A stretch of 39,523 nucleotides of DNA from Pyrinomonadaceae bacterium (GCA_039920905.1 JBDSCV010000214.1:1-39523), one strand, 5' to 3'. Counted from the stretch's first letter, positions 6,703 through 28,800 are shown. Notes: generated from the sequence alone by a model not told the origin. Made by a program: numbers and translations.

Positions 6703-6733
6703 AATTACATTGTAATTACGTGTCGAAATTTCG

Positions 6734-8017: not shown

Positions 8018-8020
8018 TAC

Positions 8021-8476
8021 TTACTTTTTCTTCGCCGCTACGATCTCGATGGCCTTTTGAATCCGACGAATACGCGTTTCCGGCGCCTTGGCTTCCACGA
8101 TCGCCCGGACGTGTTCCTTTCGATGAGTATAGCTCAGAGCCTCAAAGGCGTCGGATAAGCCATTAGCCGTCAAAGCCTCGGCGAGATCTTTTGGCACTGA
8201 AACAGTTCTCACATCTGTGTCACGCTCAACTGTAACTACAATGTGCTCACCGGCGTTAATTGCCGCCGCTTCACGAAATACCTTTGGAACTCCAAGACAG
8301 TAGACACCACCCATTCGAACGATCGATCCGCAATATTCGGCCCCATTTATCGATGCTTTTACGGGAACGCGCTTCGCACCAAAAACCTTTTCAACGTCAA
8401 ATGGAATTGTGATGCCAGTGGCTTCCATGCCAGGGTATTTTTCGAGCACGGTCTCGAATATTTGTTTCTCGGCCAT
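8021..8476 (-). CDS. DUF1905 / YdeI-like family protein
   Basis: 151 aa. GITIPFDVEKVFGAKRVPVKASINGAEYCGSIVRMGG is DUF1905-like. The C-terminal LSYTHRKEHVRAIVEAKAPETRIRRIQKAIE is YdeI/OmpD-associated-like. Confidence 0.65.
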   Translation of the reverse strand: MAEKQIFETVLEKYPGMEATGITIPFDVEKVFGAKRVPVKASINGAEYCGSIVRMGGVYCLGVPKVFREAAAINAGEHIVVTVERDTDVRTVSVPKDLAEALTANGLSDAFEALSYTHRKEHVRAIVEAKAPETRIRRIQKAIEIVAAKKK

Positions 8477-8537
8477 ATTTAACCTAAAATTTACACTTCC
8501 TCATCAATATAGATGAATCGAATTTAGCAAACTTGGT

Positions 8538-9413: not shown

Positions 9414-9434
9414 TGAGCTTTCTTGCTCTTAGAC

Positions 9435-12400
9435 CTAGAAAGCCTGAGAGAAACGGAAGTGAATTTGACCAGGTCGCAGCCTGTACTCGGCGTTTGGGGC
9501 CATATTTTGGGGTATCAGGAAAACTGGCGCGTTCAGCAGACGGCCGTAGTCGACGCCGAATTCACCCCCGACCGGCGTTTTGATCCTAAGGCCAAAACCG
9601 GCGGTGTGTGTCCAGACTGCACGCTGATTCTGTCCTGCAACGTCGTTTGCGGCAACTGTTGGTGCTTTAAATATGTCGCCGACTTTCCGAAAGACGTTAC
9701 CTCCATCGTAAAACGGCACGGCCCGAACGGCTTTGGCTAGTGGGATGCGAGCCTCCAGATTTATCACCGCCAAAGCATTGCCGCCAAAGGGAATAGTGAA
9801 CGGATCGAGAAAAACCGGTTCACGGCGGCTATTGCGAAAGGAGCCTTGCGGAACGATGACGACACGCGGGCCGGCCTCTTCAAAATCGAAACCTCGAAGC
9901 GTATTTGCTCCGCCCGCGAAGAATCTCTCGCTGATCGGCAGCAATCCATTTAAGGACGGGAACTGAGCACTTGTAAATCGAGTGTCTTTGGAAAAGAGGC
10001 TGCCAAGACCGATGATCGCTCGCCCTGCGAATGTAGTATTTTTGAGCGCCGCGACTGTGTAATAGTAGTTATAGTTGGCCTGGAATTTTTGAAACCCGAC
10101 ATTCGCTCCTAAAGTCGGAATCGAAACGTTATAGTCTGCCGTCAAATAATCGCCTTTGGTCGGATCGCTGGCGTTATATCTACATGGCTCCGTCTGCTCA
10201 CCTTTTGCGATCAGATCAAGCAGCGAATATTTTATTGAGCAATTTTGTCGTGTGTCGCGGGCAAATGTTGCCCCAAATCCAGAGATTCGTGTCCGGGCAT
10301 CGGGACGCAAGAGGTCCCTGCTCAAAAGGCTTTCGATCTTAAATAGCCGCACATCCTCAAATTTATATCTTAGAAATAGAATGCTCCGGTTTCTTCGGCT
10401 GATCGTCCGGCTTGTCTCGGCCGAAATTCCAAACCGGTTTATCGTTGGGCTTCCTATCTTGGCGCCAAATTCGTCTATCGGGTTTCCGGTTGCATCCACA
10501 CGCTGGACGATACCGAACGTACCTCTATCAAAAGCTGAGCGGAAAAAACGCGTTACGGTCGAGTCGCGTTGGTACTGAACGGAGAAAGTAAGCGGCGCGA
10601 AACGCTTTTGACCATCGCGGATAAATCGCGGATTGATAAAGTCAAACTGCACCAACTGCTGTCTTTGGCTCACTTTTATGCGGGCGCCGCCCTGCCAGAG
10701 ATTTCCAAAGAGATTGACGTGACGTATATCGAAAAAACCACTCAGGCCAAGATCTGTTGAGAAACCGCCACCGTATGAAAGCAAACGCGGCGGCTGTTCA
10801 TCGAGATTGACGATAATGTCTGTCAGGCGGCTGCCATCTGCCGTATCCCCGGCGGGCTGAGGTTTGATCTCGACACGCGAGAAGGCGTCTGTGCCGTAGA
10901 GATTTTGTTCGCTGGAATATATGTCAGCCGAACGAAGGAATTCGCCGGTTTTCAGCGTCAGCGCTCTCAAAACGGCATCCGTTTTTGTCGTCTCGTTGCC
11001 GTTTATAAGAATGCGGTTTATTAATACGTTTTTGCCTTCGCCCTCAATCTTAAATTCGATTTTGATCTCTCTTTTCTCGGCATTTGGTAATGCGGTATCC
11101 TCTACGACCGATGAGTTTACGCGGGCGTCGTAGTAACCCTGATTTGAATAGTATTCGGAAAGTTTCCTGACTGCATTTCTGATTCTAGCCCGCGAGTAAT
11201 TCCGTCCTGTCAGGCTGGGTAACTCCGCAAGTAATTTGTCCGTACTCACAGCTTTGTTTCCGGTGATGCTAACACCGCTGACAACGGTTGGTACGCCTTC
11301 TTCGACAACAAAAGTTATGATCAGCTCCTCACCGTTTAACGAAACCCCCTGATTGACACGCACGACCGCGTCACGATAACCAAGTTCCGACATCAGCGAA
11401 CGGATCGTCGCCGCGTCGTCTTCGAGGATCGCGGCGCTCGTATAGCCGCGACCGTAACCTAACACAGGGATAACGCCTAAGATGTTTGCCTCCTGAGAGC
11501 TAAGCACCGTCCGTATGTCTTCAATACTTAATTTATCAGTGCCCTGGATCCGGATATCCGTCAATGTTAGTCTGCGGTTAAGATCGACGCGATATTTTAC
11601 CTGAACTTTGCGTCCAATCAGATCTTCACCGCCAAGAAAAGAACACAAAAACTCCGTTTCATTGTCGAGAGGATTATTTTCAGTATCGGTCAGGGACGGT
11701 GTGGAAGAGCAGACCGGTGTGACATTGGCAAAAAAATAACCTTGTTCCTGGTAATAATTTTCGAGACGGCGTTCCCCTTCGACTATTCCTGCGTAATCTA
11801 ACGTTCCCTCACGCTTTATCGGGAGTAGTTTGGACTGCGTACCGCCATCGAGTTTACCTTTTTCCGTTTCGACCAGAACGTCAACGGTCGGGCCGACCTT
11901 TCCTGCCAGCACGACCGAGATCGAATTAGAATCACTTTCGAACGTGACTTTAGGCTCTTCGAGTTCCGGGGCCAGAAAGTCATCTTTTCTCAACTGCTCG
12001 CGTATCTTGGCGACATCGGCCAACAGACGATCACGGGAGTAAGGGCCGTCCTTTCGCAGTTTCAGCGACTTTTCAGGAATCGGTTTATCATACCCCTGAA
12101 TATTGATCTGAAATTTATCGACTTTGGTTTGAACGTTCGGCGTAACGGTAAATGTCACGCCAACCTCATTTTCGTTTTGCAGCGGGCGTCGTCCATACAC
12201 TACGTCAGACTGATAAAACCCGCGTTCGCGCAGATAGTCCAGTATCTGATCGGCGTTGTTGCGAAGCGTTTGCTCGGTTATCGCCGTTCCGGGCGTGAGC
12301 AGGTTTAGTTTGAACAAAAGATCCTGTTCCGTTATCTTATCGCCGACCGTGCGTCCAATCACGATCGCAACTTTTTCGGCTTGGGTTTTCCGTTTTACAT

Positions 12401-12746
12401 CAAAGCGAAGCTCGACATCGCCCGCCGCGTTAAGTGCGGCCACAACCGTAACGGTATCAACTTTTTTGGTGTTGTATAGTGCCGCGATCGCATCCCTGAT
12501 CCGGGCTGAGGAGTACTCAGAACCGATCGCTTCGCGGACGATTACGCGATATTGCTCTGTAACCGGTGAATTGGTCCCGGAGGCTCCAATGCTTACGTCC
12601 ACCTTTGCGATTCGGTGTTTTTCGTATTTGTTTTGCGCGAGACCAGCAAAACAAAAGACGCAAACGAGGATGCAGATAAACGCAGAACGCATCGATCGTT
12701 GAACGTTTGCTGTTACTCGTCTGTCGATGCTAAACCCCTTATACAT
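9435..12746 (-). CDS. Omp85-family outer-membrane protein assembly factor (BamA/TamA-like), unusually long
   Basis: 1103-aa ORF. The likely start is the internal MRSAFICILVCVFCFAGLAQ at 12692, which gives a signal peptide. There is a long run of POTRA-like repeats (e.g. LRERGFYQSDV, YQEQGYFFANV, MSELGYRDAVV, YSNQGYYDARV). The C-terminal barrel has FFAGGANTLRGF and ends in F. Confidence 0.85.
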   Translation of the reverse strand: MYKGFSIDRRVTANVQRSMRSAFICILVCVFCFAGLAQNKYEKHRIAKVDVSIGASGTNSPVTEQYRVIVREAIGSEYSSARIRDAIAALYNTKKVDTVTVVAALNAAGDVELRFDVKRKTQAEKVAIVIGRTVGDKITEQDLLFKLNLLTPGTAITEQTLRNNADQILDYLRERGFYQSDVVYGRRPLQNENEVGVTFTVTPNVQTKVDKFQINIQGYDKPIPEKSLKLRKDGPYSRDRLLADVAKIREQLRKDDFLAPELEEPKVTFESDSNSISVVLAGKVGPTVDVLVETEKGKLDGGTQSKLLPIKREGTLDYAGIVEGERRLENYYQEQGYFFANVTPVCSSTPSLTDTENNPLDNETEFLCSFLGGEDLIGRKVQVKYRVDLNRRLTLTDIRIQGTDKLSIEDIRTVLSSQEANILGVIPVLGYGRGYTSAAILEDDAATIRSLMSELGYRDAVVRVNQGVSLNGEELIITFVVEEGVPTVVSGVSITGNKAVSTDKLLAELPSLTGRNYSRARIRNAVRKLSEYYSNQGYYDARVNSSVVEDTALPNAEKREIKIEFKIEGEGKNVLINRILINGNETTKTDAVLRALTLKTGEFLRSADIYSSEQNLYGTDAFSRVEIKPQPAGDTADGSRLTDIIVNLDEQPPRLLSYGGGFSTDLGLSGFFDIRHVNLFGNLWQGGARIKVSQRQQLVQFDFINPRFIRDGQKRFAPLTFSVQYQRDSTVTRFFRSAFDRGTFGIVQRVDATGNPIDEFGAKIGSPTINRFGISAETSRTISRRNRSILFLRYKFEDVRLFKIESLLSRDLLRPDARTRISGFGATFARDTRQNCSIKYSLLDLIAKGEQTEPCRYNASDPTKGDYLTADYNVSIPTLGANVGFQKFQANYNYYYTVAALKNTTFAGRAIIGLGSLFSKDTRFTSAQFPSLNGLLPISERFFAGGANTLRGFDFEEAGPRVVIVPQGSFRNSRREPVFLDPFTIPFGGNALAVINLEARIPLAKAVRAVPFYDGGNVFRKVGDIFKAPTVAANDVAGQNQRAVWTHTAGFGLRIKTPVGGEFGVDYGRLLNAPVFLIPQNMAPNAEYRLRPGQIHFRFSQAF

Positions 12747-12767
12747 TCAAAAATTTCTATACGAGCC

Positions 12768-15700
12768 CTAGAACCGCCTACGGAATCGAATTTCAAAACT
12801 AAAATTATCGCGGTTGCGGGTCACGTTGCTCAATGACCGTTGTTCATACTGAGCGACAAAAGACAGCTTATTCGACACGCGATATTCCAGTGCCAGTAGC
12901 TGATTCTGATCCTGTGAGAGATTAGTCGAATAGGTAACACGCAAATTATTGTTAATCTGCCGTCCGACCGTCAGCCTGGCACCGGGGTTTACCGACTGTC
13001 CGGAAATAAGCGGGTCAATCTCAAACACGTTAAGGCCAAAGAGCTTATCGGTCGCTTTTCTGGCCGGATTATTGATGATAGCGTCGGTTAAAATTTCTGC
13101 CGCCGTATTGATGCCCGTTTGAGCAAGCGTCGGAATGCCGCCCGACGTGTTTGCCAGATTGCCGGTCGTTATCAATGAAACAACGTCTGCCTGAGGCAAA
13201 GCGGGACTGGAACGAACAGTCGCCGCAAGCTGCTCAGAGTCCTTGAGCGGCCCGGCAAGATTCACAAAGACCTGATAACCGCCGATCTCGGATTCGGCCT
13301 GAAGATTGATAACAGGTTCGATTGCAGTATCAGGCGGAAATTCCAAAACGCCCCGCTGCACGTCATAGCGTTCTTTTCGGAAAAAGATCGTGCCGCTATT
13401 AGCCGTGATCCGTCCTGACAAACGCGGATTATTTGCGTCACCCGTCAGCACGAGTGAAACTGACGCCGTTAGGTCCGCAATATTGTTTCGCACCACGAGA
13501 GCGTCGCGGCCCTCGATGATCAGATCGAATCGCGGAGCCGTGATCGACCCGCCGCCGCCGGAAAGTACGGGATCGCGCCGCCCTCCGATGAGATTTGCGA
13601 GATCAATGTCCTTGGAATAAAGACTGCGCTTGGCGAACACACGCCCGCCGATCGTCACTTGCAGACCATCCGTCCGGTTGCGTCGAATGCCCGATATCTC
13701 AAGCTGTGCGTCACCGGTCGTAATAAAATCTTTCGGCAGGGGAACCGTAACATTGTTGCCGTCCAGCGAGAAACGGAAAGCCTGAACAGCGAGTCCGTCG
13801 AGAGAGCCGCCACCGCTGGCAACAAACTTGCCGCCGCCAAGATACCCGGTCGCTTCTTCGACCTCAACCTGATTAGATGTAAAGATCAGACGGGCCTTCA
13901 AACGATCAATTGTGAAGCGGTCAGACCCTAAGAACGTGGCCACCGAACCGTTTACGATATTTGCCGTGCCTGATAGACGGGCGGTCGAATTTGGCCCCGA
14001 AAGCCTAACAGATGCGTCAGCAAAACCCGCAAAGAATGTATCTTTTGATGCGAGATTGAGCAAATTTAGATTTACCCGACCATCAATCGAAAGATTATTT
14101 ATGCCGTCATCCGTCAGGGCCTTTGTTCCCGCGATGGTCATATTCGAGCCGCCGCCGGCAAATCGGGCCCGTTCAAAATTTATCTCGCGAGTGTTAAATC
14201 TGATCAAAATCGGCTCGGCTGCGGCTAACGGCGTATCTTGTATCTGGAGAGCAAGCTGTGAGAATTGGGCCGTGCCGTTGAGATTTGCCGCAGTGTAAAT
14301 GCGGTTACCTTTGTCGTCGAGCTGTGTCAGATTGCCACTCAATTCGATCCGCCCGGTGCCGATTCCGGTGATCGGCAAGCCCTTTGCCTGTGGAACGAAT
14401 GCCAGAAAAGGTGATATTGGGCTCTGATTAAAGTCGGTAGCAACCGAAAAGGGTAAATTTGCGTCGGCGAAATTAACTGAGGCGTTTATCACTTGCGGGT
14501 GGCCGTCGAGGCTGGCGGTGAGATCGGCGGTAAGCATCTGATTCACGGTCTGACCCTTGAAAGTAATCTGGCCAAGCGTGGTTTCGTTCACCCGAACACC
14601 AGGCGAGGCGCCGCTGAAATTAACATTATAGGTCGGCGTCCGATCCAAAATGCCGGTAGCTTTCGCCGTAAAATCCACATCGCCGGTGATAACCGGAATG
14701 CTGTCACTCTTTGGCAAAAGGGCCAGCACAAGCGGCAGCGGAAGTGATTTTCCGCCAAGGTCAAAATCGAAAGTCTGAGACGCACGGTCATAGTTACCCA
14801 TTGCGGTGAGACGGCCCGTCCCGATCTGCATTTCCCCGCGTTGCAGGTCAATCGTGGTTCCGTTAAACACGGCCTTTACGTTTAGATTATCGAATGTCTG
14901 ACCCGCGATAATTCCTTTGGCGGCGGCTAGATTGATCTCGCCCCGAGATTCATTTGGAAGGCCGCTTATATCGATCGTCCCGGACGTTTGGCCGTCCAGA
15001 TCGCGGATCCGTTCCGGAAGTTCGACTGGCAGCGCAGCCAGCAAGTTACCGGCGTTTACATTTGTGAGTGTTGCTTTGACGGCGACATTATTCTTTCCCG
15101 TGTTGGGAACACTTACGGTGAACAACGCATTTCCACCGTTTCTTTCCTGCAATTTGCCGTTACGTAGTTCAACACCGAGGGGCGAGACAAATATGTCCGT
15201 CGCAACGCTGCCAAGCTCGCGTCCGCGTAATGAGATCGAGTCGAGCGAAGAGCGCCCCTCGATCGTCGGATCGGATAAATTTCCGGTAACAGTTCCGTCA
15301 AACGTAAGATTCCCGGCAATCTGTACCTGCATCGAATCAAGCTGTCGCTCGAGCTCCGCCGAGATGCCAAGCACACGCACCAAACGCTCGATCTCGTTCG
15401 CGTCGGTTGATCTCAATGCGAGTGTTAGATTTGAATTCTCGTCCTTTAGATCAAAACGCCCGGTCGCCGTTAGGTTGCTTTTCTCCGAATTCAACCTCGC
15501 GAGATCGACATTGAACAGGCCGCCTGCGGCACTCAATTTAATCTGCCCGTTCACGGGAATCAGGCCGCGTTCCGCGGTCCCGGCGTTAGCCGTAATGTCC
15601 GCATTTAGAGTTCCCGATGCGGTACGAAAGTTTGTGCCGTTAAATGTAAGATCAACGTTCCCGGTTGTTTGCCCCTCGATCGGTGTGATGCCGCCGCCCT

Positions 15701-17885
15701 GTAGAGCGAGCAGTTTTGAAATATCAAGATTGGAAAAATCACCCTTTAATGTTGATAAGCTGCGGTTATTGAGAGCGATCACGGCGTTGCCGTTTAGCTG
15801 GCCGTTCATCACGTCGGCCGTTATTTCGTTCAGGGCCACGCGGTCATTGTCTACATCAACCTTAACCTTTGCGGCACCAAGCGACACGCTGCCGAGCGCG
15901 CCGCCGCCGAGGCTCATATCCGCCGTAGCACGATAGCGGCCGGACGGCTCGAGTATAAAAACAGGTTTGTATATCTTTACGGCTTCGAGCGTTCCGCCAT
16001 CGGGCAAGCTTTTAGTTTTTGCCAGTGCCACATTCCCGGCGTCAATGTCGGCTGAGCGAACTTCGACATGGCCTTGCCTGATAGTGAGCCGGACGCCGCC
16101 AATATTAATGCTGCCCAGTGTTGCCGAGCCGGTATCGATCTTAGCTACGCGAAGCTTGTCGGAATAAACGACGGTTCCAGCCGATGAATTGTCGATATTT
16201 ACCGACGGAGCTTCGAGACCGTCAACCAATGCGCCATTCATATCCAATTGACCGACGCGAAGATTTTTGGCCGTCACATTGGTCGAATTTGGCAGATCGG
16301 TAAACCTAAAATCGTCAACCGACACATTTTTGACTTTATTATTTTTGATCTGTGCGGTTTCCGATCTTATATTGTCCAGATCGACGTGCGTCACGCCTTT
16401 TTGGTTTTTAACGCGAACATTTCGCCCGATCAGCCCCTGTAAACTGTAATCGTCAGTAGTAAATGATCTGGCCTGAATATTTGGAACAGTAACATTCACG
16501 ATGTCGCCGTTTACCGACAACTTGAGGTTCCGAGCCTTCAGTTCTGCAAATTCGTTATCCTTGATCGAAAATTTTAGCACCCGGCCGTTGCCTGATTCGA
16601 CTCGAAACTGCCTGTCTTTGTATTCGGCAAGAGCATCCGAGAGAAATAATCCGCCGAGCGTCAATGACTTTGATTTTGCTGCCGCCGCCTGTAATTCGCC
16701 AACCCAACGGAAATCCGTTCCCCTTCCCCGCACGTTTCCGACCATCTTAAGGAAATCGACGCGAAAATCTTCAAATGTCAGCATCTCAGCGATCGCTGTG
16801 CCGTTTGCCTCATAATTTGTATTGGTCCCGGCGACGGTCGCCGCTACGTTCAAAGCCTTGAGATAGACGCCGCCGGCCCGCAAGGACGCGGCGTCGGCCT
16901 CGCCTTCGATCTTATAGGTCTCGCCTTCGCCGGTGACCTTACCCTTAAAATTCCCGACGCCAATGAGTGATGTTCCAATCGGTAAAATGCTCGACGCCTG
17001 TGTCAGATCGACCGTAGATTGAATATCAAAATTGTATTTCGGGGCGGCCCAGTCGGTTAAAGTTCCCGCTAAATAGGAAGTGCCGATCGGCGTTTCAAGG
17101 TCAAACCTGCTGATCTCGGCGCCGTAACGGTCGGCGATCCCGATGGCCCGAATGTCGATCTTCTCGACCACGCTGCCGTCATAATTAAAATTCGAATCGG
17201 TAGAGGTTAGATCAAATTTATAGCGTCTTTGTTCCTCAGCGACTTCGCGATTTTCTGGTGAGAGCAGAAATAATAAATTTTTAGCGTCAGCCGTGATCTT
17301 TCGTGAGACGTCGCCAAAATGAACCACGCTGTCGGTAAGCGAAAAATCCGCCGAATCGTATTTAAAGTTTACGCGGCTTCCAGCCTGATCCTCGACAAGT
17401 TTTAGATTGGTAAAATTTGAACGCCCGTTCTCGTCAAACTTAACCCACGCTTCCGCACCCGATATTTCGGTTTTATCAATACTGATATCGCGGCTCATTT
17501 GCCATGCGTAAAGATTTTGAACCGATAATTCGAAATGGGCGTTACGGATAAAAAACAGTTTCTCACCGCTGACCCGATCATTGAAGGTCGCATTCTGGAG
17601 TTCCAATTCGAGCGGATTTACCGTTAGCCGGAAAACATCAGCGTCAAAGACCACGCCAATGTCCGCCATTTTCGAGACAAACTGGGTTTTAACATAATTG
17701 TCGAGAACTCCGTACCGGAACGCAACGACCGAGAGCAGCGAGACCAACACGCCCAGGATCACGATCAGACCGACCGAAATAACGGCATTGCGGCGCGTAA
17801 AATACCTGCGCGCTTGTCTGGCGGGAGGCGCTTCGGCCGGGTCTTGCTCACCTTTCGGGGTGTTTTTGATCTCTTCTTCCGACAT
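12768..17885 (-). CDS. tamB: translocation and assembly module protein TamB (AsmA-like/DUF490)
   Basis: 1705 aa. There is one N-terminal TM anchor (VISVGLIVILGVLVSLLSVVAF) and a long beta-rich body. The C-terminus, LTVGRQINNNLRVTYSTNLSQDQNQLLALEYRVSNKLSFVAQY, is typical of the TamB DUF490 end. Confidence 0.85.
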   Translation of the reverse strand: MSEEEIKNTPKGEQDPAEAPPARQARRYFTRRNAVISVGLIVILGVLVSLLSVVAFRYGVLDNYVKTQFVSKMADIGVVFDADVFRLTVNPLELELQNATFNDRVSGEKLFFIRNAHFELSVQNLYAWQMSRDISIDKTEISGAEAWVKFDENGRSNFTNLKLVEDQAGSRVNFKYDSADFSLTDSVVHFGDVSRKITADAKNLLFLLSPENREVAEEQRRYKFDLTSTDSNFNYDGSVVEKIDIRAIGIADRYGAEISRFDLETPIGTSYLAGTLTDWAAPKYNFDIQSTVDLTQASSILPIGTSLIGVGNFKGKVTGEGETYKIEGEADAASLRAGGVYLKALNVAATVAGTNTNYEANGTAIAEMLTFEDFRVDFLKMVGNVRGRGTDFRWVGELQAAAAKSKSLTLGGLFLSDALAEYKDRQFRVESGNGRVLKFSIKDNEFAELKARNLKLSVNGDIVNVTVPNIQARSFTTDDYSLQGLIGRNVRVKNQKGVTHVDLDNIRSETAQIKNNKVKNVSVDDFRFTDLPNSTNVTAKNLRVGQLDMNGALVDGLEAPSVNIDNSSAGTVVYSDKLRVAKIDTGSATLGSINIGGVRLTIRQGHVEVRSADIDAGNVALAKTKSLPDGGTLEAVKIYKPVFILEPSGRYRATADMSLGGGALGSVSLGAAKVKVDVDNDRVALNEITADVMNGQLNGNAVIALNNRSLSTLKGDFSNLDISKLLALQGGGITPIEGQTTGNVDLTFNGTNFRTASGTLNADITANAGTAERGLIPVNGQIKLSAAGGLFNVDLARLNSEKSNLTATGRFDLKDENSNLTLALRSTDANEIERLVRVLGISAELERQLDSMQVQIAGNLTFDGTVTGNLSDPTIEGRSSLDSISLRGRELGSVATDIFVSPLGVELRNGKLQERNGGNALFTVSVPNTGKNNVAVKATLTNVNAGNLLAALPVELPERIRDLDGQTSGTIDISGLPNESRGEINLAAAKGIIAGQTFDNLNVKAVFNGTTIDLQRGEMQIGTGRLTAMGNYDRASQTFDFDLGGKSLPLPLVLALLPKSDSIPVITGDVDFTAKATGILDRTPTYNVNFSGASPGVRVNETTLGQITFKGQTVNQMLTADLTASLDGHPQVINASVNFADANLPFSVATDFNQSPISPFLAFVPQAKGLPITGIGTGRIELSGNLTQLDDKGNRIYTAANLNGTAQFSQLALQIQDTPLAAAEPILIRFNTREINFERARFAGGGSNMTIAGTKALTDDGINNLSIDGRVNLNLLNLASKDTFFAGFADASVRLSGPNSTARLSGTANIVNGSVATFLGSDRFTIDRLKARLIFTSNQVEVEEATGYLGGGKFVASGGGSLDGLAVQAFRFSLDGNNVTVPLPKDFITTGDAQLEISGIRRNRTDGLQVTIGGRVFAKRSLYSKDIDLANLIGGRRDPVLSGGGGSITAPRFDLIIEGRDALVVRNNIADLTASVSLVLTGDANNPRLSGRITANSGTIFFRKERYDVQRGVLEFPPDTAIEPVINLQAESEIGGYQVFVNLAGPLKDSEQLAATVRSSPALPQADVVSLITTGNLANTSGGIPTLAQTGINTAAEILTDAIINNPARKATDKLFGLNVFEIDPLISGQSVNPGARLTVGRQINNNLRVTYSTNLSQDQNQLLALEYRVSNKLSFVAQYEQRSLSNVTRNRDNFSFEIRFRRRF

Positions 17886-20337: not shown

Positions 20338-21078
20338 CTATGCGGACAGTCCGGCCTTGAAGCCCTTTTCGTACATTATCCAAAGGCCAAGCGCGACGCT
20401 GATACAACCCGCAACTGTCTGCAGCACCTGATTAAAACGGTTGAATCGCGAAGCTTTGAAAAGGAACGGAAGCCCCACAAAAAAGCTCATCAGCATCATC
20501 CCGCCTATCGAGCCGACGCCAAAAACTATAATGTAAAGGAAACCGACATTTTTGGATGGTATGGTCTTAATTACAAGGAGCATGAGCGCCGCGCTGCCGG
20601 CGAGGCCGTGGACCAAACCTATAAACAGGGCGCGCGGGCTGTGACCCTTTTTATGAGCAATTTCCGGGTTCTTCACCTCTGAATGATCGTGAACGTGCGG
20701 ATGGGCGTGTAAATGTTCGCCGTGCTCATGCGTATGAAAATGTATTTGTCCGCCGCTCACCAATTTCCGGAGAACATTCAAACCTAATAGCGTAAGCATG
20801 ATTCCCACACAGAATTCAAGCCAGCGCTCGGTATTTTCACTTATCTCAAAATCCAAAAGTAAAACAAAGACACCCGCAATGATAAGTGAGATCGTGTGGC
20901 CCAGGCCCCACAAGCCGCCGACAACAGCAGAACTCCAAATACTCCGCCGACCGGAAACGATTGTCGAAACCGCCACCAGATGATCAGCTTCTGTCGCGTG
21001 TTTGAGTCCGAGCAAGAAACCGTAACCCAATAGTGCAAATGTCGAAGTTGCAGTAATTTGTAGCAACAGTTCTCTCAT
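20338..21078 (-). CDS. NicO/UreH-like nickel-cobalt transporter family membrane protein
   Basis: 246 aa and polytopic. It has LGLKHATEADHLVAVS (an HxxxADH-type motif) and a His-rich loop, HFHTHEHGEHLHAHPHVHDHSE. Its start is 3 nt after the upstream stop. Confidence 0.7.
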   Translation of the reverse strand: MRELLLQITATSTFALLGYGFLLGLKHATEADHLVAVSTIVSGRRSIWSSAVVGGLWGLGHTISLIIAGVFVLLLDFEISENTERWLEFCVGIMLTLLGLNVLRKLVSGGQIHFHTHEHGEHLHAHPHVHDHSEVKNPEIAHKKGHSPRALFIGLVHGLAGSAALMLLVIKTIPSKNVGFLYIIVFGVGSIGGMMLMSFFVGLPFLFKASRFNRFNQVLQTVAGCISVALGLWIMYEKGFKAGLSA

Positions 21079-21081
21079 AAT

Positions 21082-22554
21082 CTATACAAGTGAGTTATAA
21101 CATAACACGGCTCCAACAGTCGCTATAACAAAAGAGCTAAACACCGGAAGAAGTTTAAATACAAAGCTGTCTGAGAAAGAGGTTTTGCCAAAAATATTTC
21201 TAATTTTTAGAAAGATCACCCCCACTAAGGTAAGCGTCGCGGCCAGTCCAAAACTAAACGCCACGGTCAATACAAGGCCGTATCCGACACGCCCAAGCGT
21301 TATCGCCGACAGCATCAAAACCAGCGCCGACGGACAGGGCAATAATCCGCCCGAAATACCGAGAGCGAGCAGATTGCGCCATGTTATCTCGTCCGGCAAA
21401 GCGTGACTGTGAGTCGAACCGCCATGGGTGTGCGTATGGCCGTCATGCGAATGGATCGATTCTTCGTCGTGTCCGTCAAGATCGTGGTGATGATGCTCGG
21501 GGGCCGTTCTTTTCCAACCAAGCAACGAAAACAATCTGTCCTTAAATAGAGAAATACCGATAAAAAAGACGAGCAAGCCCGAAACAAAAGCCAGAAAGGG
21601 CATTAAGCGTTCCGGCAGTATGTAATTAGATGCAAAAAGCGTAATGAGGCCCAGTGCGAAAACGCCGAGCGTGTGGGTAACTGTAACGATCAAACCGAGA
21701 AATGCTGCGTGTTTTACCGTTCCTTTTGAGCCGACCAGATAGGCCCCGACCACCGTTTTGCCATGCCCCGGCGACATGGCGTGCATCGCTCCCAGCCCAA
21801 ACGCCACCAAAAGACCAAACAGAGCGATCGCCGGCGTGATCTCTCGCACGGCAATCAGCTCGGCAAGTCGATCCGGCTGTATGGCACTCGCGGTCCGGCC
21901 ATCGCGGCCGATCAATGGCTTAGCATTTTCCGGGATCGTACCTGTCGTAAACGAAAATTCTGCGGCTCGTTCGGATAACGGTGACGACAGCAGATCTTTG
22001 GGATAGGATTTCAGTTCTTCCGATAGAGCGCTCGAGTAAACCGAACTGTCATATACCTGAGTGCCAGCCGTATTGTTTACAATGATTTCCCGCCATCCGA
22101 TCCGTTCCGGATAAGCATTATTTTGAAATAAGACTTTGCCGGATGATTGTGTTTCGGAGGATTTTGATTGTAAATTCCATTCGAGCCTCAGCGTGGGCAG
22201 ATTACCCTCTCCGGCTACAATGCTGATCTTTTTGTCGAGAATATCTATTTGTAACTGGTCGTTGTTGATCGTTAACAATAGTTTTGATAAATAGTCTGAC
22301 GTTATGCCTGTTTGATATGTTTCTAATTCGCTCGCGGACAAATTTCCATCTTTATCGGCGTCAATCGAGCCAAAGGCCTGAAAAGTTGGTATTTCGGCAA
22401 AATCTAATACCTGATGGATCTTAATCTCCGATCGCTCAACATCAATACGCGAAAACTGATTGACACTAAAATTGCCGAGCGGATGCGCCGAGACCGAGAT
22501 TGCCGTCGCGAACAGCAAAAAAATGATTAAAATTTGAATACCAGTTTTCATCAT
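21082..22554 (-). CDS. fusion of a periplasmic domain with an RcnA/NicO-type His-rich metal transporter domain
   Basis: 490 aa. The signal peptide ends VSA, then HPLGNF. The ~230-aa soluble domain contains an EF-hand-type loop, DADKDGNLSASE. The membrane domain has GAMHAMSPGHGKT, the loop HHHHDLDGHDEESIHSHDGHTHTHGGSTHSH, and GISGGLLPCPSAL. Confidence 0.7.
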   Translation of the reverse strand: MMKTGIQILIIFLLFATAISVSAHPLGNFSVNQFSRIDVERSEIKIHQVLDFAEIPTFQAFGSIDADKDGNLSASELETYQTGITSDYLSKLLLTINNDQLQIDILDKKISIVAGEGNLPTLRLEWNLQSKSSETQSSGKVLFQNNAYPERIGWREIIVNNTAGTQVYDSSVYSSALSEELKSYPKDLLSSPLSERAAEFSFTTGTIPENAKPLIGRDGRTASAIQPDRLAELIAVREITPAIALFGLLVAFGLGAMHAMSPGHGKTVVGAYLVGSKGTVKHAAFLGLIVTVTHTLGVFALGLITLFASNYILPERLMPFLAFVSGLLVFFIGISLFKDRLFSLLGWKRTAPEHHHHDLDGHDEESIHSHDGHTHTHGGSTHSHALPDEITWRNLLALGISGGLLPCPSALVLMLSAITLGRVGYGLVLTVAFSFGLAATLTLVGVIFLKIRNIFGKTSFSDSFVFKLLPVFSSFVIATVGAVLCYNSLV

Positions 22555-22560
22555 TATCGT

Positions 22561-23898
22561 TCAGCTTTTGTGTTCGAGCGATTTAAGGGCCTGCTTAGCA
22601 TTTTCACTTTGTATCAGATCAAATGCCGCATTGAGTTTTAGCGCCGCCTCGAGCAACCTGATCGCTTCGCTTCGGTTTCCGAGCTCTTTTTCGATCATTC
22701 CTGCATGGTAAAAGATTCGCGCGTCTTTTGTTTTCAAGCGCAACGCTTCGTTGATAATATTTTTCGCCTCTTGAAAATTTCCTTTTTTGTACAAACACCA
22801 GGCGTAAATATCCGCCGTGAAAATATCTTTACGCGTCGTGTGTTCTTTTTCGGCGATCGCCAAAGCCTCGTCAAGTTTTATGTCCTGATCGGCCCACAAA
22901 AGTGCCAGCCGCCGCATATCTATATTGCCTAGTTTTTGTTCGATAAACTCTGCCAATTGGTATTGTTGCTGTGCCTTGTCCACGTTTCCCGTTTTTTTAT
23001 ATAGATCGCCAAGCTGAATAACCGTTTCGGTCAGCGGCACACGGTTTTGTGATTGCGTTAAAAACTGGATGGCATTTTCATAATCACCAGACGCCATTCG
23101 CGCCTGGCCCTTGCCAGCCAGAGCAAAATGATATTCGGGGAAAATCTTCAACGCCAAATCGTAAGCAAGTTCGGCGTCGGCATATTTTCCGGCCTTGAAA
23201 TATTCGTTACCCAAAAAAACCCGACACCAGGCCCGCGCTTCTTTGTCCGCTGGGTCGGCAGTTTTTGCCGCGGTCCCCATCGCTTCGATCGCGCCGTCGG
23301 TATCGCCATACAAAGACCGGACATGCGAAACACGGGCATAAGATTCCATATTCGGTTTCGAATCAACCATCTGCTGAACGTTTTTTACAGCTTCCTCGTA
23401 GTTGCCAAGTTCGACATTCGCGTCAGCCAAGGCACCGTAGATGAACGAATCCTGAGGATATTGCTGGTGCAACCCGGTGGCGGCCGCGAGAGCTTCGGGA
23501 AAACGGTGAAACGTCAGAAATAAAGAGGCCTGTAATTTTTTTGCAATTGCGTTTTCCGGTTCAAGTTCGAGTGCCTGGTTTACGGCAGCTTCAGCTTTTG
23601 AATTCAAACTGAAATCACCGCTTTCGCGCGCCAACTTGATATATGAAAGAGCAAGCATGGTATACCCTAGCGGTGCGCCCGGCGATTTGCTGATCATTTC
23701 TTGCGCGGCTTTAACTTGCACATTATCCGAGAACCCAGTTTCCGGGTTTGACGATTGGTAGGTTGAAGCGGCACTTTGCTTTGAACAGGAAACAGTTAGA
23801 ATAAGTGCCGATAATAAAAACGCTCCACCAATAAAGAAATTTAGATCTTTATTCACTATCATTGCTGGATACCTTTGCTTAGTTGAAAAATTCGACAT
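22561..23898 (-). CDS. tetratricopeptide repeat protein, probably membrane or lipid anchored
   Basis: 445 aa. The hydrophobic N-terminus ends LILTVSC (lipobox-like); an alternative start is the ATG at 23862. TPR-like A/Y/G-patterned repeats run throughout (e.g. GNYEEAVKNVQQMV, GKYADAELAYDLALKIFP, GDYENAIQFL, GNFQEAKNIINEAL). Confidence 0.8.
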   Translation of the reverse strand: MSNFSTKQRYPAMIVNKDLNFFIGGAFLLSALILTVSCSKQSAASTYQSSNPETGFSDNVQVKAAQEMISKSPGAPLGYTMLALSYIKLARESGDFSLNSKAEAAVNQALELEPENAIAKKLQASLFLTFHRFPEALAAATGLHQQYPQDSFIYGALADANVELGNYEEAVKNVQQMVDSKPNMESYARVSHVRSLYGDTDGAIEAMGTAAKTADPADKEARAWCRVFLGNEYFKAGKYADAELAYDLALKIFPEYHFALAGKGQARMASGDYENAIQFLTQSQNRVPLTETVIQLGDLYKKTGNVDKAQQQYQLAEFIEQKLGNIDMRRLALLWADQDIKLDEALAIAEKEHTTRKDIFTADIYAWCLYKKGNFQEAKNIINEALRLKTKDARIFYHAGMIEKELGNRSEAIRLLEAALKLNAAFDLIQSENAKQALKSLEHKS

Positions 23899-23934
23899 TC
23901 TAAAAAGGTTTTCGTCTTAAATCGTTTATAGGTT

Positions 23935-23975
23935 CAACTACGAACCGCGCCCTCATCGGACGCGATTCGTAGTTG
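23935..23975 (-). other. intercistronic stem-loop between the DUF4331 and TPR genes
   Basis: CAACTACGAACCGCG ... CGCGATTCGTAGTTG. The imperfect stem is about 15-18 bp with one mismatch and the loop is about 11 nt. No U-tract follows on the minus strand. Confidence 0.6.
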
Positions 23976-24014
23976 TCTAGGTTTCAGTCAAAATTCGACT
24001 GGTTGAAATGAGAA

Positions 24015-25592
24015 TTATTTCTTAGCCGGGCCCACTGAACAAGGTCTCAAGTTACTCCTTCTTGGCTGATTGCCCTGTTGGGCTGGTGCCAAATAAGGAA
24101 AGCGTTGCAAGTAGTCCGTACCGCCAGCCATAGGAACGCCGGTGATAGGATCTATGCTCACATCGTTTCCGCTCACGCCGTCGCCCAACGTATTGTTTGG
24201 CGCGACATTATAACTCGGTGTGAACGGTGTTCCGCCCGCGACGACCCGCAGAGAAATATCCGTCACGTCATCTTCCACACGACGGCCATTGGGATAACCA
24301 GCGACGTCTCCGCCCAAAAGACCCAAACGGCTAAATGACGCGCTACCATAAGGTGTCGGCGTGATGCCCATATTTAGACGAATCTCCTCGTGGGGAACAC
24401 CATCGTTACCCTGAATAACAGTCGTATAATTCGGGCCCGTAACGCCATTAACGGGTATTCCGAGAACTGTGATCTGGGCAATATCATTACGCGGTGGCGG
24501 GGGGGTGCTTGGCACAGCTCCGACAGCGACTAACAATTTCGCCAGTTCTGGATCAAGTACGGCATTGACCACCGCAGGAATTGTTCCGTCTACACTTGGA
24601 CGAATACTGTTAAAAGCATCCTTCAGTCCAAGCGGGATGATTACTTCGTTGATTAGCGGATTGCCAAGACGTGAAACTTGAATAAAAGGCCCGCTGTTCG
24701 AGCGTGATCCGTCAGCGGCAATGACTTGCGTTGATTGACGGCTGGCAGTCGAATAGACACCAATGACGGCATTAGCGGCCAGTGAGTTAGCAACCGGTTG
24801 TCCGTCTCTGGTTAATTCCTGAATCGGAACTTCGATTGCGATAGAGTTGACGTTAAAGCCGTCAGTTGTGCTGACGCCGCCGCACGTGCTGTTGAGCGAA
24901 CGGAAGTTTAATAAGTCAAACGCCGCGCCGACATCAACTAAAAAGCCTTCGTCGCGCTGTCCCGCAAAGGTTCTAAAGCCACTTGGGGTTATCGTGTGAG
25001 TTTCCTGATCCGCCAAAGCAGGATAATTTGGTGTAACTCTCGGCCCAACATTGCTCGGCGGGGTTCTAATAGAACCACTCGGCAACATAACGGTGCTGCT
25101 GACGGGGTTGCCGTTTGTGCTGTTCACCCGAGTTATGCTGTAGGTCTGCGGCATATTGTAGTCAATGTCTCTGGTTGTACTGACAACACCATCGCTCATA
25201 GGATTTCCAAGAGTGATGGCGGTATGTCCCAAAATAGTGTTGCTGTTGACCGTGCTGGTAGTAAAGCGGAATTGATAACTAATATCCGGGAGACCGTCGC
25301 CGGTATTATCAATATGTATTTCATACAAAACCGTATCGTCAAACCGATAGAACTGCGGTCCGCCCGACGGATCCTGAAACGGAATAAAATTAGCGAGCAG
25401 GGTCACAAACCCAGTGCGACCCGAAGCGATGCTGCGAAAAGCATAGACGTCGGTATTATCGGCATATCTGTCCATACTGATAAGCGGTGCCTCAGCATGG
25501 CTCGAAGCCAATGCAGGAAACACAGACATTGAAACGATCCACGCCGTTACGGCGAGGCCTTTTGCAATTTGTTTTGTAAAATTGTAATTCAT
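24015..25592 (-). CDS. secreted DUF4331 domain-containing protein
   Basis: 525 aa with a strong RBS (AGGAGG). The signal peptide ends FPALA, followed by SSHAEAPLISMDRYADNTDVYAF..LYEIHIDNTGDG. This is the N-terminal signature I associate with DUF4331. Confidence 0.8.
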   Translation of the reverse strand: MNYNFTKQIAKGLAVTAWIVSMSVFPALASSHAEAPLISMDRYADNTDVYAFRSIASGRTGFVTLLANFIPFQDPSGGPQFYRFDDTVLYEIHIDNTGDGLPDISYQFRFTTSTVNSNTILGHTAITLGNPMSDGVVSTTRDIDYNMPQTYSITRVNSTNGNPVSSTVMLPSGSIRTPPSNVGPRVTPNYPALADQETHTITPSGFRTFAGQRDEGFLVDVGAAFDLLNFRSLNSTCGGVSTTDGFNVNSIAIEVPIQELTRDGQPVANSLAANAVIGVYSTASRQSTQVIAADGSRSNSGPFIQVSRLGNPLINEVIIPLGLKDAFNSIRPSVDGTIPAVVNAVLDPELAKLLVAVGAVPSTPPPPRNDIAQITVLGIPVNGVTGPNYTTVIQGNDGVPHEEIRLNMGITPTPYGSASFSRLGLLGGDVAGYPNGRRVEDDVTDISLRVVAGGTPFTPSYNVAPNNTLGDGVSGNDVSIDPITGVPMAGGTDYLQRFPYLAPAQQGNQPRRSNLRPCSVGPAKK

Positions 25593-26051
25593 TTTCCTCC
25601 TCGTACTCTTTCCTTAAGCCGTATCGAGGTATCACGCTCGAACGGTAAATGATAATGTTCCTGTGACCGCATTTTGCGGCAGAAACCACAGCAACTAAAA
25701 AAGACCTAGCCGCCCAACAGCTATATCTAAAAAATCATCACGTCCATCAATTACTCCCCCTTGTTTGGTTAACGGCTGATGCGAGAAACCTTTATTATCG
25801 CGTTCGTTCGCTATGCTCCAGATTATTCAAAGGCCGTCTCAGCAACTGCAATTGCTCTTATGAAAACCTTATTCGCCGGGTTCGGAAATTCGGATTCAGA
25901 GCACCATCGGGCGATTTTTTCGTCGATATAGTTGAATTGTAGATTAAAAACCTTTTGCCTGTATGTATGGTTTCGCACATAACGTTATTTTAATAGCAAG
26001 GTGCAGTTCCACTGGGGGTTTGCTAATCTTATTAGTTTGGCCCTGTTAAGT

Positions 26052-27900: not shown

Positions 27901-28800
27901 ATGAGTATAAACCTTCCCGCAATTTGGACTGGCCGCAAACGCGGATATCTATTCGACTGGGTCACGCAAAAATGGGTGCGTCTAACCGGACGAATTATCG
28001 ATCTCAAGAGTGAAAGTTGGATCCAAGGTCCGATTGGCGATACCCGAGAAATTGGGGAGACTTACTTTGAACGACTGGCTCAATTCCAGGATTTTAGCCT
28101 AAATCTTAATCCGGTTGATGCCGGACTCATTGAAGAATTTGCGCTTCTTAGGAGTAGCACATTCTCACCTGAAGAGCTTCATCCTAAGATCGTAGATTTC
28201 TACGAACACACGACGAAATACAATTTAGATGTCTGGTCGCAATGGAGCGGGCCTTTCAAGCCATTTGGCTGGCTATTAGCATTTATTTTTAGCCGAAGAT
28301 TGCAGCAACTCAATATGCCCATATCTTCGCTTGATACAAGCCGGGGGATTACGAGCGATATTATCCAGTTGACGGATGAGACAGGCTCGACGGTTTGGAC
28401 CGGCTGGTTGAGAAAACTTATCGCCACTAACTCAGTGATTTATGCCGGGATTTATTCGACGTGTAAGCCATCGAAATTTCCGGGACGGTGCATGAAAGTT
28501 GTTTTTCCTCTTCCAAATGGAAATGCTACGGTGGTAATGAAGCCGGAGGTTCATTCTGATGGTTCTATCACATTGATTTCGTCAGGAAACGAGTTTGGAG
28601 AACCCGGTTTCTACTTTGTAGTCCAAAAAAATGAGGATCAGGCTTGGGTGAAATATCTTACGGTGATGAAAGAAAGTATTCACGTTTATGTAGACGAATC
28701 GAAAGAGTTACGGGCCGATCATATTTTAAAACTGTGGGGAGCAACATTCCTTAAGTTGCATTATCGAATGCAGCTAAATACAACCTCGCGTGACGTCTAA
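27901..28800 (+). CDS. hypothetical protein (no family confidently recognised)
   Basis: 299-aa ORF, 46 nt downstream of lepA and visibly more AT-rich than its neighbours. No TM segment or signal peptide is seen. The C-terminal beta-rich region VVFPLPNGNATVVMKPEVHSDGSITLISSG..LRADHILKLWGATFLKLHYRM vaguely recalls DUF4166-type proteins, but I cannot confirm that. Confidence 0.55.
   Translation: MSINLPAIWTGRKRGYLFDWVTQKWVRLTGRIIDLKSESWIQGPIGDTREIGETYFERLAQFQDFSLNLNPVDAGLIEEFALLRSSTFSPEELHPKIVDFYEHTTKYNLDVWSQWSGPFKPFGWLLAFIFSRRLQQLNMPISSLDTSRGITSDIIQLTDETGSTVWTGWLRKLIATNSVIYAGIYSTCKPSKFPGRCMKVVFPLPNGNATVVMKPEVHSDGSITLISSGNEFGEPGFYFVVQKNEDQAWVKYLTVMKESIHVYVDESKELRADHILKLWGATFLKLHYRMQLNTTSRDV

Follow-up and report, generated by a model that had tools for sequence, protein, structure and literature searches.

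Histidine-initiated (His1) domains carried by permeases of the HupE/UreJ-2 family have been named 'anglerases' (Franco Cairo et al., Nat Commun 2025, PMC12537917). One of them, RbAng-1a, binds Cu2+ at 74 nM and Ni2+ at 220 nM via His1, and the domain was proposed to fish for metal and feed its own permease (PMC12537917). The same study describes DUF4198 as a secreted, Ni-binding His1 protein; it covers HupE/UreJ-2 fusions only, leaves NicO permeases, tetratricopeptide repeat (TPR) proteins and amino-terminal Cu(II)- and Ni(II)-binding (ATCUN) sites unmentioned, and lists DUF4331 nowhere but in a supplementary table of neighbours, with a count of 2 (PMC12537917). A literature search on 'anglerase' returned this paper alone. 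Here we describe a cluster of four genes (g1 to g4) in a 39,523-nucleotide stretch of DNA from a Pyrinomonadaceae bacterium (JBDSCV010000214.1:1-39523, hereafter the window), whose best protein matches assign the organism to the Pyrinomonadaceae (Acidobacteriota). The cluster encodes a DUF4331 protein, a TPR protein, a fusion of a periplasmic His1 domain with a NicO-type permease, and a second, short permease. It is, with good confidence, a transition-metal-handling module centred on a secreted protein of ATCUN type. All conclusions rest on sequence, structural models and gene order.

The first gene, g1 (24015-25592, minus strand), encodes a 525-residue protein that is predicted to be exported by Sec and belongs to DUF4331 (Pfam PF14224, E 3e-124, 415.9 bits against a gathering cut-off of 27), its residues 30-503 spanning positions 1-420 of the 421 in the profile; NCBIfam had no model for it. 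DUF4331 is a very large family, comprising 5153 clusters at 50% identity in an exhaustive HMMER search (E<=1e-3), and is carried by soil and marine bacteria and by at least one archaeal bin. An initial annotation of this DNA had held that the family lacks an experimentally assigned function, in agreement with our literature search, where DUF4331 was without a main-text mention in any paper found. A PDB sequence search with g1 gave no relative, and an AF2 model built from 74 homologues (pLDDT, the predicted local distance difference test, 83; pTM, the predicted template modelling score, 0.84) had no match in the PDB at E<=1e-3 by Foldseek, so no function could be derived from the fold. Neither a known enzyme fold nor a catalytic motif was found in g1 by these two PDB searches. 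The family does contain Asp-rich loops, DNTGDGxxD, of a type seen in Ca-stabilised extracellular proteins, and g1 has only 5 histidines in its 525 residues.

The most conserved feature of DUF4331 is its X-S-H tip. In g1, a signal peptide of residues 1-29 (25506-25592, minus strand) is predicted to be cleaved at ALA|SSH, and the predicted mature N-terminus S-S-H-A-E-A-P (25485-25505, minus strand) bears the family signature, an ATCUN-type NH2-X-X-His. Among 53 diverse representatives, down to 34% identity, S31, H32, A35 and P36 are invariant, H32 being the sole invariant histidine. The residues that precede this histidine are constrained in the 242 full-length DUF4331 proteins: all 242 have A/G/S/T at position His-3, only A/V/L/T/S/I/G occur at His-5, a variable and frequently bulky residue stands at His-4, and 128 have Pro at His-6. 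Such a pattern is a textbook signal-peptidase I site, cut two residues before the histidine of Ser-His, and cleavage according to the -3/-1 rule is predicted to give [S/A/T]-S-H-x-[E/D]-A-P, with His at position 3, in 242/242 proteins. Residue 2 of the predicted mature protein is Ser in 241 cases, Asn in one and never Pro. Together with the third-position His, this makes the predicted N-terminus conform to what defines an ATCUN Cu(II)/Ni(II) site by sequence. The earlier proposal that ALA|SSHAEAP leaves an ATCUN-type Ser-Ser-His thereby gains strong indirect support. A search of the ATCUN and periplasmic literature found no comparable family.

Other ways of reading the tip were judged less likely or rejected. 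Cleavage directly before the histidine, which the initial annotation had offered as an alternative and which would create a His1 brace, is compatible with small residues at -1 and -3, yet the canonical A-x-A is found two residues farther upstream, the residue that would then stand at -2 is limited to S/A/T, and the leaderless family members described below start with M-S-S-H, not M-H; it is the less likely site. Cleavage one residue later than predicted, exposing Ser-His, was rejected because it would place the variable, often bulky residue at -3. An N-terminal-nucleophile hydrolase was rejected because residue 1, which varies between S, A and T, cannot be the nucleophile.

The genomic context of the family was examined in locus samples made up of the best-scoring 80 of ~600 matches per scan, in which distant branches of the family are under-sampled. 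Neighbouring genes were clustered, a hidden Markov model (HMM) was built for each recurrent family and used for the censuses, and representatives were checked against Pfam. The 80 genomic DUF4331 loci come from Acidobacteriota, Actinomycetota, Chloroflexota, Eisenbacteria, Dormibacterota, other groups and one Nitrososphaerales bin, and they fall into two mutually exclusive architectures, type A, with a Sec leader (42 genes; the type of the window), and type B, which is leaderless (37 genes). The leaderless open reading frames (ORFs) start M-[S/T]-S-H-R-E-A-P, often with an in-frame stop no more than 10 codons upstream, and occur mostly in Actinomycetota and in the Nitrososphaerales bin (L023, L027, L030-L041, L046, L048, L050-L057, L061-L063, L066-L068, L071, L073, L075, L076, L078 and L080-L082, with DUF4331 near position 10000 of each). 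Serine at position 2 is a good context for methionine aminopeptidase, so the mature end of these proteins is again predicted to be S-S-H. Signal-peptidase cleavage and Met excision thus appear to converge on the same free N-terminus, which points to selection for a free alpha-amine at a fixed distance from the histidine. This convergence is the strongest support for an ATCUN site that sequence can give, although it is not proof, as a structural role of the N-terminus, such as a salt bridge, would constrain it similarly.

The two architectures also differ in their partners. All 37 leaderless genes are accompanied by a small upstream protein (~100 residues), a small downstream protein (~120 residues) or both, neither of which belongs to a Pfam family. 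A twin-arginine motif is present in 33 of the 35 upstream proteins, and the downstream protein, which is without a signal peptide, contains His-rich inserts that vary between loci, HGHGHGHGH being one example. Judged by sequence, the gene order looks like the hitch-hiker arrangement of twin-arginine translocation (Tat). No leaderless gene has an adjacent TPR gene (0/37), and the small partners are absent from type A (0/42), an exclusivity with Fisher p values of 5e-13 and 2e-23.

In type A, a g2-type TPR gene lies directly downstream of DUF4331 on the same strand in 31/42 loci; the 11 without an adjacent TPR gene include some at contig ends. Where the TPR gene exists, the permease follows it directly on the same strand, either as a g3-type fusion (16 loci) or as HupE/UreJ-2 (~5 loci), so that the partner alternates between NicO and HupE/UreJ-2 proteins, each with an N-terminal His domain. 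Over all 80 loci the census gave 16 g3, 6 HupE/UreJ-2, 4 NiCoT, 6 g4-like and 3 DUF4198 genes, and an adjacent permease is missing in about half of the Sec-type loci. For the reverse scan, metagenomes were searched with a profile of the g3 N-terminal domain, and the 80 g3-type loci obtained were screened for 12 cluster families. A TPR gene was directly upstream of g3 in 46/52 loci with at least 1.5 kb of upstream DNA, and DUF4331 was upstream in 28/32 loci with at least 3.3 kb. These counts define a conserved unit, DUF4331-TPR-(His1-domain permease), to which g4 is accessory. The co-occurrence of DUF4331 and NicO genes, which the initial annotation had put forward for checking, therefore holds in both directions, and the synteny extends over Acidobacteriota, Actinomycetota, Chloroflexota, Pseudomonadota and Bacteroidota; of the four-gene unit proposed there, g1-g2-g3 is a conserved core, while g4 is optional across relatives.

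More distant examples follow the same plan. Plasmids of the Pseudomonadota Marinobacter adhaerens and Lichenicola cladoniae carry DUF4331 together with a divergent TPR protein (E 2e-16 and 4e-17 with the g2 HMM) and a HupE/UreJ protein that has a His1 start and an EF-hand-like loop. In Adhaeribacter swui (Bacteroidota) a divergent TonB-dependent receptor gene adjoins the DUF4331-TPR pair, and in one Pyrinomonadaceae genome (L003) the TPR gene is immediately followed by a gene for such a receptor. Close relatives of the window have the order DUF4394-DUF4331-TPR-g3(-g4) beside lepA.

A system unrelated to metal has to be weighed at this point. DUF4331 could be a secreted enzyme, an adhesin or a binder of a non-metal ligand, with the TPR protein folding or anchoring it, the permease link being secondary and the free N-terminus serving a structural or catalytic purpose, for example a salt bridge as in activated serine proteases. 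The undefined N-terminus of the AF2 model, the missing permease in about half of the Sec-type loci and the Asp-rich, Ca-type loops would all agree with this, and the loci beside type II secretion genes or, in Marinobacter, phosphatase genes would suit a secreted hydrolase. It would, however, leave unexplained why His3 and a small residue 2 other than Pro fit the ATCUN definition in 242/242 proteins, why the small partner of leaderless loci is His-rich, and why DUF4331 shows tight positional synteny, in both directions, with His1-domain permeases of two unrelated families; moreover, residue 1 varies between S, A and T, which excludes a nucleophile, and Fur-family regulators are adjacent in three loci. 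We consider a non-metal role improbable.

The second gene, g2 (22561-23898, minus strand), encodes a TPR protein of 445 residues, predicted to be membrane-tethered, that belongs to an orthologue group specific to the position after DUF4331. Several TPR profiles score above their cut-offs (TPR_2 83.4, TPR_8 70.7 and TPR_19 66.6 bits, among others), and the orthologue HMM recognises the window protein at 1.6e-152 and orthologues from other phyla at 1e-40 to 1e-119. Its N-terminus contains a lipobox-like L-T-V-S-C at residues 34-38 (23785-23799, minus strand), as had been noted before together with the TPR character of the protein; this motif matches the broad PROSITE lipobox pattern and misses the strict one. 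Pyrinomonadaceae orthologues have clearer lipoboxes at the same position (GSAC, GTGC, SSAC or SGAC), and those of other phyla have a single N-terminal hydrophobic anchor, so that the group is predicted to be tethered to the membrane outside the cytoplasm, by a lipobox in the former and an anchor in the latter. H131, D159, E163 and R189 are invariant in 36/36 g2-type orthologues across phyla and could, on sequence grounds, form a peptide- or metal-binding site. The DUF4331-TPR pairing is obligate and is a new point.

Between g1 and g2 lies a stem-loop (23935-23975, minus strand) with a perfect 18-bp stem, a 5-nt loop and no U-run (z -5.1). Strong stem-loops were also found in the DUF4331-TPR spacer of six Acidobacteriota relatives (L001:9505-9600, L003:11600-11685, L005:2055-2135, L006:11585-11734, L008:2620-2769 and L045:1150-1235); their sequences are unrelated, and some are terminator-like with U-runs. 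Similar stem-loops follow the binding-protein genes of ABC transporter operons. The hairpin suggests that g1 mRNA ends or is stabilised there and that g1 is made in excess; g1 may be a partly separate or over-represented transcript, and the hairpin may set a high expression ratio of g1 to g2-g4.

The third gene, g3 (21082-22554, minus strand), encodes a 490-residue protein in which a periplasmic His1 domain with a beta-sandwich fold is joined to a six-helix permease of NicO type. Its signal peptide (residues 1-23, 22486-22554, minus strand) is predicted to be cleaved at VSA|H, and AxA|HPLGNF[S/T]xN is kept in 18/18 orthologues examined, for which reason His is predicted to be the first mature residue, as the initial annotation had read from VSA|HPLGNF. 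The periplasmic domain that follows (residues 24-240, 21835-22485, minus strand) was modelled with AF2 at a pLDDT of ~90 over residues 30-225, and has an Ang-1/ZrgA-like fold. Its top PDB match by Foldseek is 9GCE, the Cu-bound Ang-1 of a HupE/UreJ-2 protein (E 2.6e-5, prob 1.0), with a moderate template modelling (TM) score of 0.49 on the target over 147 columns, followed by the zinc proteins ZrgA (8F1B, prob 0.99) and PA4063 (7BGO, prob 0.98). At the sequence level a PDB search with g3 gave nothing meaningful, and a profile of the domain found no Ang-1 chain in the PDB, making homology undetectable by sequence; hhalign against the HupE-fused N-terminal domains of DUF4331 loci gave a probability of 55% (E 1.2e-4). 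The domain had been called sensor-like, for which we found no specific support; on the strength of the model matching Cu-bound Ang-1 it is better read as an anglerase-type metal-capture domain, with metal binding predicted.

A helical insert of this domain holds the loop DADKDGNLSASE (residues 65-76, 22327-22362, minus strand), which had been described as a canonical EF-hand. The loop pattern is indeed present between predicted flanking helices, and the profile of the domain matches EF-hand proteins in the PDB at E ~0.005, but EF-hand_5 scores 18.6-19.9 bits, below the cut-off of 25.9, and we prefer to call the loop EF-hand-like. It is found in ~10/16 g3 orthologues and missing in ~6/16. Transport of lanthanides or calcium was rejected, as a third of the orthologues are without the loop, the His-rich loops indicate ions of the Ni/Co/Zn type, and a match to lanmodulin was insignificant (E 1.9).

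The membrane domain of g3 (residues 241-490, 21085-21834, minus strand) matches Pfam NicO (PF03824) over residues 249-380 with 45.2 bits, above the gathering cut-off of 27.7, and Pfam returned no HupE_UreJ match (PF13795 fusion partner) in g3. The best NCBIfam match is NF007454, the RcnA nickel/cobalt efflux subfamily (E 1e-30, residues 250-486), at 107 bits against a curated cut-off of 195. A His-rich loop (residues 352-386, 21397-21501, minus strand) contains 11 His in 30 residues; every orthologue examined (18/18) has such a loop behind its third membrane helix, and a loop placed there, with a periplasmic domain in front of the helices, is predicted to be cytoplasmic. The fusion to an RcnA/NicO-type membrane domain with a His-rich loop is thus confirmed.

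The fourth gene, g4 (20338-21078, minus strand), encodes an accessory permease of 246 residues that is UreH-like and NicO-related. It had been proposed as a second NicO/UreH-like permease with a His-rich loop. The loop, HFHTHEHGEHLHAHPHVHDH (residues 113-132, 20683-20742, minus strand), is present, in a region with 11 His in 30 residues, but the Pfam NicO cut-off is just missed (24.1 bits against 27.7), and DsbD_2 is just exceeded (25.4 against 24.9). The score against the HoxN/HupN/NixA NiCoT model (TIGR00802) is 21.8 bits, with a curated cut-off of 333, and NCBIfam gave a weak match to the cation diffusion facilitator DmeF. Its homologues on plasmids carry the annotation 'urease accessory protein' or 'nickel transporter', and g4 is not adjacent to urease or hydrogenase genes. 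It was found in L020, L029, L044, L070, L074, L091 and L092; among the 80 genome loci it occurs in 5 of type A and in 6 overall when the type B locus L027 is counted, and in 2/35 metagenomic g3 loci with room downstream.

The membrane domains bring up the question of direction. In an efflux or detoxification system, g3 and g4 would expel Ni/Co like RcnA, and DUF4331 and the His1 domain would buffer or remove periplasmic metal in an RcnB-like manner. This would account for the NCBIfam match of g3 to a nickel/cobalt efflux subfamily, and for the weak DmeF match of g4, and cytoplasmic His-rich loops are common in exporters. Extracytoplasmic function (ECF) sigma factors are also frequent near DUF4331, in 28/80 loci, with RskA-type (zf-HC2) anti-sigma factors in 17/80 and both architectures represented (for example L009, L014, L044 and L079), such pairs being present also at L087:3559-4784 and in many of L093-L172, and the cnr resistance system uses an ECF sigma/anti-sigma pair. 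Nevertheless, g3 stays far under the RcnA family cut-off, and its interchangeable partners, namely HupE/UreJ-2, NiCoT, DUF4198 and a TonB-dependent receptor, are of the uptake type. The adjacent regulators are of the Fur family: three Actinomycetota genomes have such a gene next to a DUF4331-TPR-g3 cluster or within it (L025:14073-15155, minus strand; L043 ~14700-15375; and L070:13231-13797, where it separates g3 from g4; Pfam FUR, E 3e-14 and 7e-13). Regulators of MerR, ArsR or RcnR type did not form a recurrent cluster among the neighbour clusters of the 80 loci. The cluster of the window lies outside any resistance island, as its surroundings are housekeeping genes (lepA, ribBA, tamB, a BamA-like Omp85 gene, serS and a phosphomannomutase gene), and the carriers are ordinary soil and marine genomes. 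We therefore give efflux little credence.

Uptake is favoured for several reasons. The partners that can stand in for one another (HupE/UreJ, NiCoT, UreH-like, DUF4198 and TonB-dependent receptors) are uptake-type, the HupE/UreJ, NiCoT and UreH-like families being importers by precedent; three loci have Fur-family regulators beside the cluster; uptake is also what the published anglerase model proposes; and the spacer hairpin implies an abundant soluble component. We tentatively read the cluster as a capture-and-import relay that leads from the g1 tip to His1 of g3, through the NicO channel and on to the cytoplasmic His loop, with g2 as a dock, a reading that we hold to be plausible though short of likely. 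In such a relay, g1 would be exported by Sec and cut after Ala29, whereupon Ser-Ser-His would form an ATCUN-type site from the alpha-amine, two backbone amides and the imidazole of His3. This site would capture Ni(II) or Cu(II) outside the cytoplasm, with g1 probably in excess, since a hairpin follows its gene. The putative TPR lipoprotein g2 would hold g1 at the membrane beside the permease, and the metal would be handed to His1 of the anglerase-type beta-sandwich domain fused to g3. The NicO-type channel would then import the metal, the cytoplasmic His-rich loop would receive it, and g4 would be an optional second, UreH-like permease. Metal binding, the identity of the metal, the contacts between g1, g2 and g3 and the inward direction are what we infer; the gene set, its families, the two-way synteny, the family-wide X-S-H tip and the fold match of g3 are observed. 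Nickel is the most likely metal, to judge by the His-rich loops, by inserts such as HGHGH and by partners of the NiCoT and DUF4198 families, and cobalt or copper is possible, copper being allowed also by ATCUN and Ang-1 chemistry. The general proposal of the initial annotation, a dedicated metal capture-and-transport or detoxification pathway, gains support from the HMM assignments, the synteny in five phyla and the tip in 242/242 proteins.

A number of points weigh against a relay, and most of them would be expected if DUF4331 were instead the end user of the metal. ATCUN sites are thermodynamic sinks that favour tight binding and slow release, which suits storage or a fixed cofactor over a shuttle. 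DUF4331 is a fold of ~470 residues, highly conserved throughout and with many invariant Asp, Arg, Asn and Tyr residues, and this exceeds the needs of a carrier for a three-residue site. The AF2 model is silent on the tip itself, since pLDDT falls below 50 at residues 29-39. The nearest named relative of the g3 membrane domain is the Ni/Co exporter RcnA. No recurrent neighbour (at least 3 loci) resembling urease, hydrogenase, Ni superoxide dismutase (Ni-SOD) or another cytoplasmic Ni enzyme was seen within -4/+5 kb in the 80 genome loci, as judged from representatives and with no profile search. Furthermore, the set of partners changes with the compartment where DUF4331 folds, an extracytoplasmic TPR protein and permease going with the Sec leader and a cytoplasmic His-rich protein and a Tat-signal protein with the leaderless form, a distribution that is explained more naturally by metallation of DUF4331 itself.

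In such a scheme of metalloprotein maturation, DUF4331 would work outside the cytoplasm as a metalloprotein, possibly an enzyme, with a fixed Ni or Cu ion bound in its X-S-H hook. At Sec-type loci the RcnA-like g3 would export metal, its His1 domain would hand it over and the TPR protein would act as assembly chaperone; at leaderless loci metal would be inserted in the cytoplasm with the help of the His-rich small protein, and DUF4331 would then leave by Tat on the twin-arginine protein. The strict exclusivity of the partner sets (TPR 31/42 against 0/37; small partners 0/42 against 37/37), the twin-arginine motif in 33/35 upstream proteins and the downstream protein with His-rich inserts and no signal peptide all fit, and Ni-SOD, which PMC12537917 also cites, is an earlier case in which processing of the N-terminus yields a metal hook there. 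Conversely, there is precedent for import by HupE/UreJ, NiCoT and UreH-like partners, uptake is the better setting for TonB-dependent receptors and Fur-family regulators, g1 has yielded neither a catalytic motif nor the fold of a known enzyme, both Tat hitch-hiking and Met excision are themselves predictions, and 11/42 Sec-type loci are without an adjacent TPR gene and about half without an adjacent permease. We regard maturation as a serious rival, possible rather than probable. Taken further, it would place DUF4331 in a class of its own among extracytoplasmic metalloproteins, perhaps as a redox enzyme, with Ni or Cu in an X-S-H hook loosely like that of Ni-SOD and with two dedicated maturation routes, one by Sec and metallation outside the cell by the TPR chaperone and His1 permease, the other by a cytoplasmic His-rich chaperone and Tat hitch-hiking; this we think unlikely.

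Within the window, the layout agrees with that first described. The ORF coordinates reproduce exactly the gaps of 116, 6 and 3 nt between four co-directional genes, all on the minus strand, and the family assignments of the four proteins were borne out by profile HMMs (Pfam, NCBIfam). The strong ribosome-binding site reported ahead of the first gene corresponds to a Shine-Dalgarno GAGGAGG (25596-25602, minus strand), 3 nt 5' of the g1 ATG. It lies in the 5' untranslated and promoter region of g1 (25593-26000, minus strand), which is shared divergently with lepA. No inverted repeats or operators were found in 25593-26000, and Rfam gave nothing credible among known RNA elements, either for the whole window at gathering thresholds or for the g1 leader at E<=10. 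Its identity to the closest relative, L083, is 86%, too high for footprinting to be informative. Two small genes, one for a YtxH protein and one with a weak DUF948 match, lie directly downstream of the cluster. Farther away, within 9435-17885 (minus strand), a 1103-residue Omp85/POTRA (BamA/TamA-like) gene comes directly after a 1705-residue gene; by our own reading of its sequence the latter is TamB-like, and the two look like a translocation-and-assembly module pair unrelated to the cluster. A 299-residue ORF between lepA and the phosphomannomutase gene (27901-28800, plus strand) had no Pfam match at E<=0.001.

Other loci show additional neighbours. A gene for a secreted DUF4394 + FG-GAP protein precedes DUF4331 in most Pyrinomonadaceae relatives (L001:6237-7895, L091:1200-2822, L092:1167-2813, three copies within L006 at 3270-9870, and L008:46-924) and is absent from the window and from L083; the window likewise contains no sigma/anti-sigma or Fur partner. 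In L006 (9986-19667) the cluster is duplicated, with a DUF4331-TPR pair, a second, partial DUF4331 match and a second TPR-g3 pair. On the Rhodobacterales plasmids of Paracoccus liaowanqingii (L085) and Sulfitobacter pontiacus (L088), DUF4331 stands beside a complete type II secretion (gsp) cluster and a gene for an A24 prepilin peptidase, which suggests secretion beyond the outer membrane in these organisms. Upstream of DUF4331-TPR-HupE on pHP-187 of Marinobacter adhaerens (L084:1-6581) are alkaline phosphatase D family, metallophosphoesterase, DUF3299 and PKD-domain genes, and a link to secreted metal-dependent phosphatases is possible.

The analysis gives DUF4331 a concrete and cheaply testable hypothesis, a predicted ATCUN-type N-terminal metal site apparently kept by two independent maturation routes, and it links the family physically to 'anglerase' permeases, extending that concept from HupE/UreJ-2 to NicO-type proteins. 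If true, DUF4331 would be a new protein component of bacterial Ni/Co/Cu acquisition or of extracytoplasmic metalloprotein assembly, with relevance to the trace-metal economy of the soil-dominating Acidobacteriota, Actinomycetota and Chloroflexota, and it would provide a natural example of a bacterial ATCUN site used outside the cytoplasm.

Compared with known systems, g3 comes closest to the anglerases, with which it shares a signal peptide cut right before His, a beta-sandwich with a helical insert and a multi-helix metal permease behind it; other DUF4331 loci carry true His1-HupE/UreJ-2 fusions and DUF4198 proteins in the position of g3. It differs from them in its NicO/RcnA-like permease, its EF-hand-like loop and the lack of detectable sequence similarity to Ang-1. 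As its membrane domain is NicO and not HupE/UreJ-2, g3 is a variant and not an anglerase as defined, and judging from the model the most fitting description is an anglerase-like domain joined to a permease of another family. The periplasmic zinc binders ZrgA and PA4063 share the beta-sandwich fold class of the g3 domain, but they are free-standing, work with ABC transporters and have no detected sequence similarity to it. A literature search on DUF1007 brought up nothing relevant. With RcnA/RcnB of E. coli the cluster has in common a six-helix permease of the NicO superfamily with a central His-rich loop, as well as a periplasmic accessory component; in g3, however, the family cut-off is not reached, the periplasmic part is fused and of a fold class other than that of RcnB, and the neighbours suggest uptake. 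The short His-loop permease g4, with its HAxxADH-like motif, resembles the NiCoT, UreH and HupE/UreJ proteins, and other DUF4331 loci have NiCoT and HupE genes in place of g3 and g4, although g4 misses the NicO cut-off, stays far under TIGR00802 and has no urease or hydrogenase gene beside it.

The predicted NH2-X-S-H of DUF4331, with His3 and a residue 2 other than Pro, corresponds to the ATCUN sites of serum albumin and the hCtr1 ectodomain. In the transfer from albumin to Ctr1, an extracellular ATCUN site feeds a membrane importer. What sets DUF4331 apart is that the motif, whose metal binding is predicted, is family-wide in a large bacterial secreted protein and would arise through signal peptidase or Met excision. 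Taken together, the permease of NicO type, the domain resembling anglerases and the ATCUN motif are each of a known kind, and the new elements are a testable function for DUF4331, a Sec/Tat dichotomy that preserves one N-terminus, and the extension of His1-domain fusions to NicO; the cluster as a whole probably represents a mode of extracellular handling of nickel-like metals that has not been described before.

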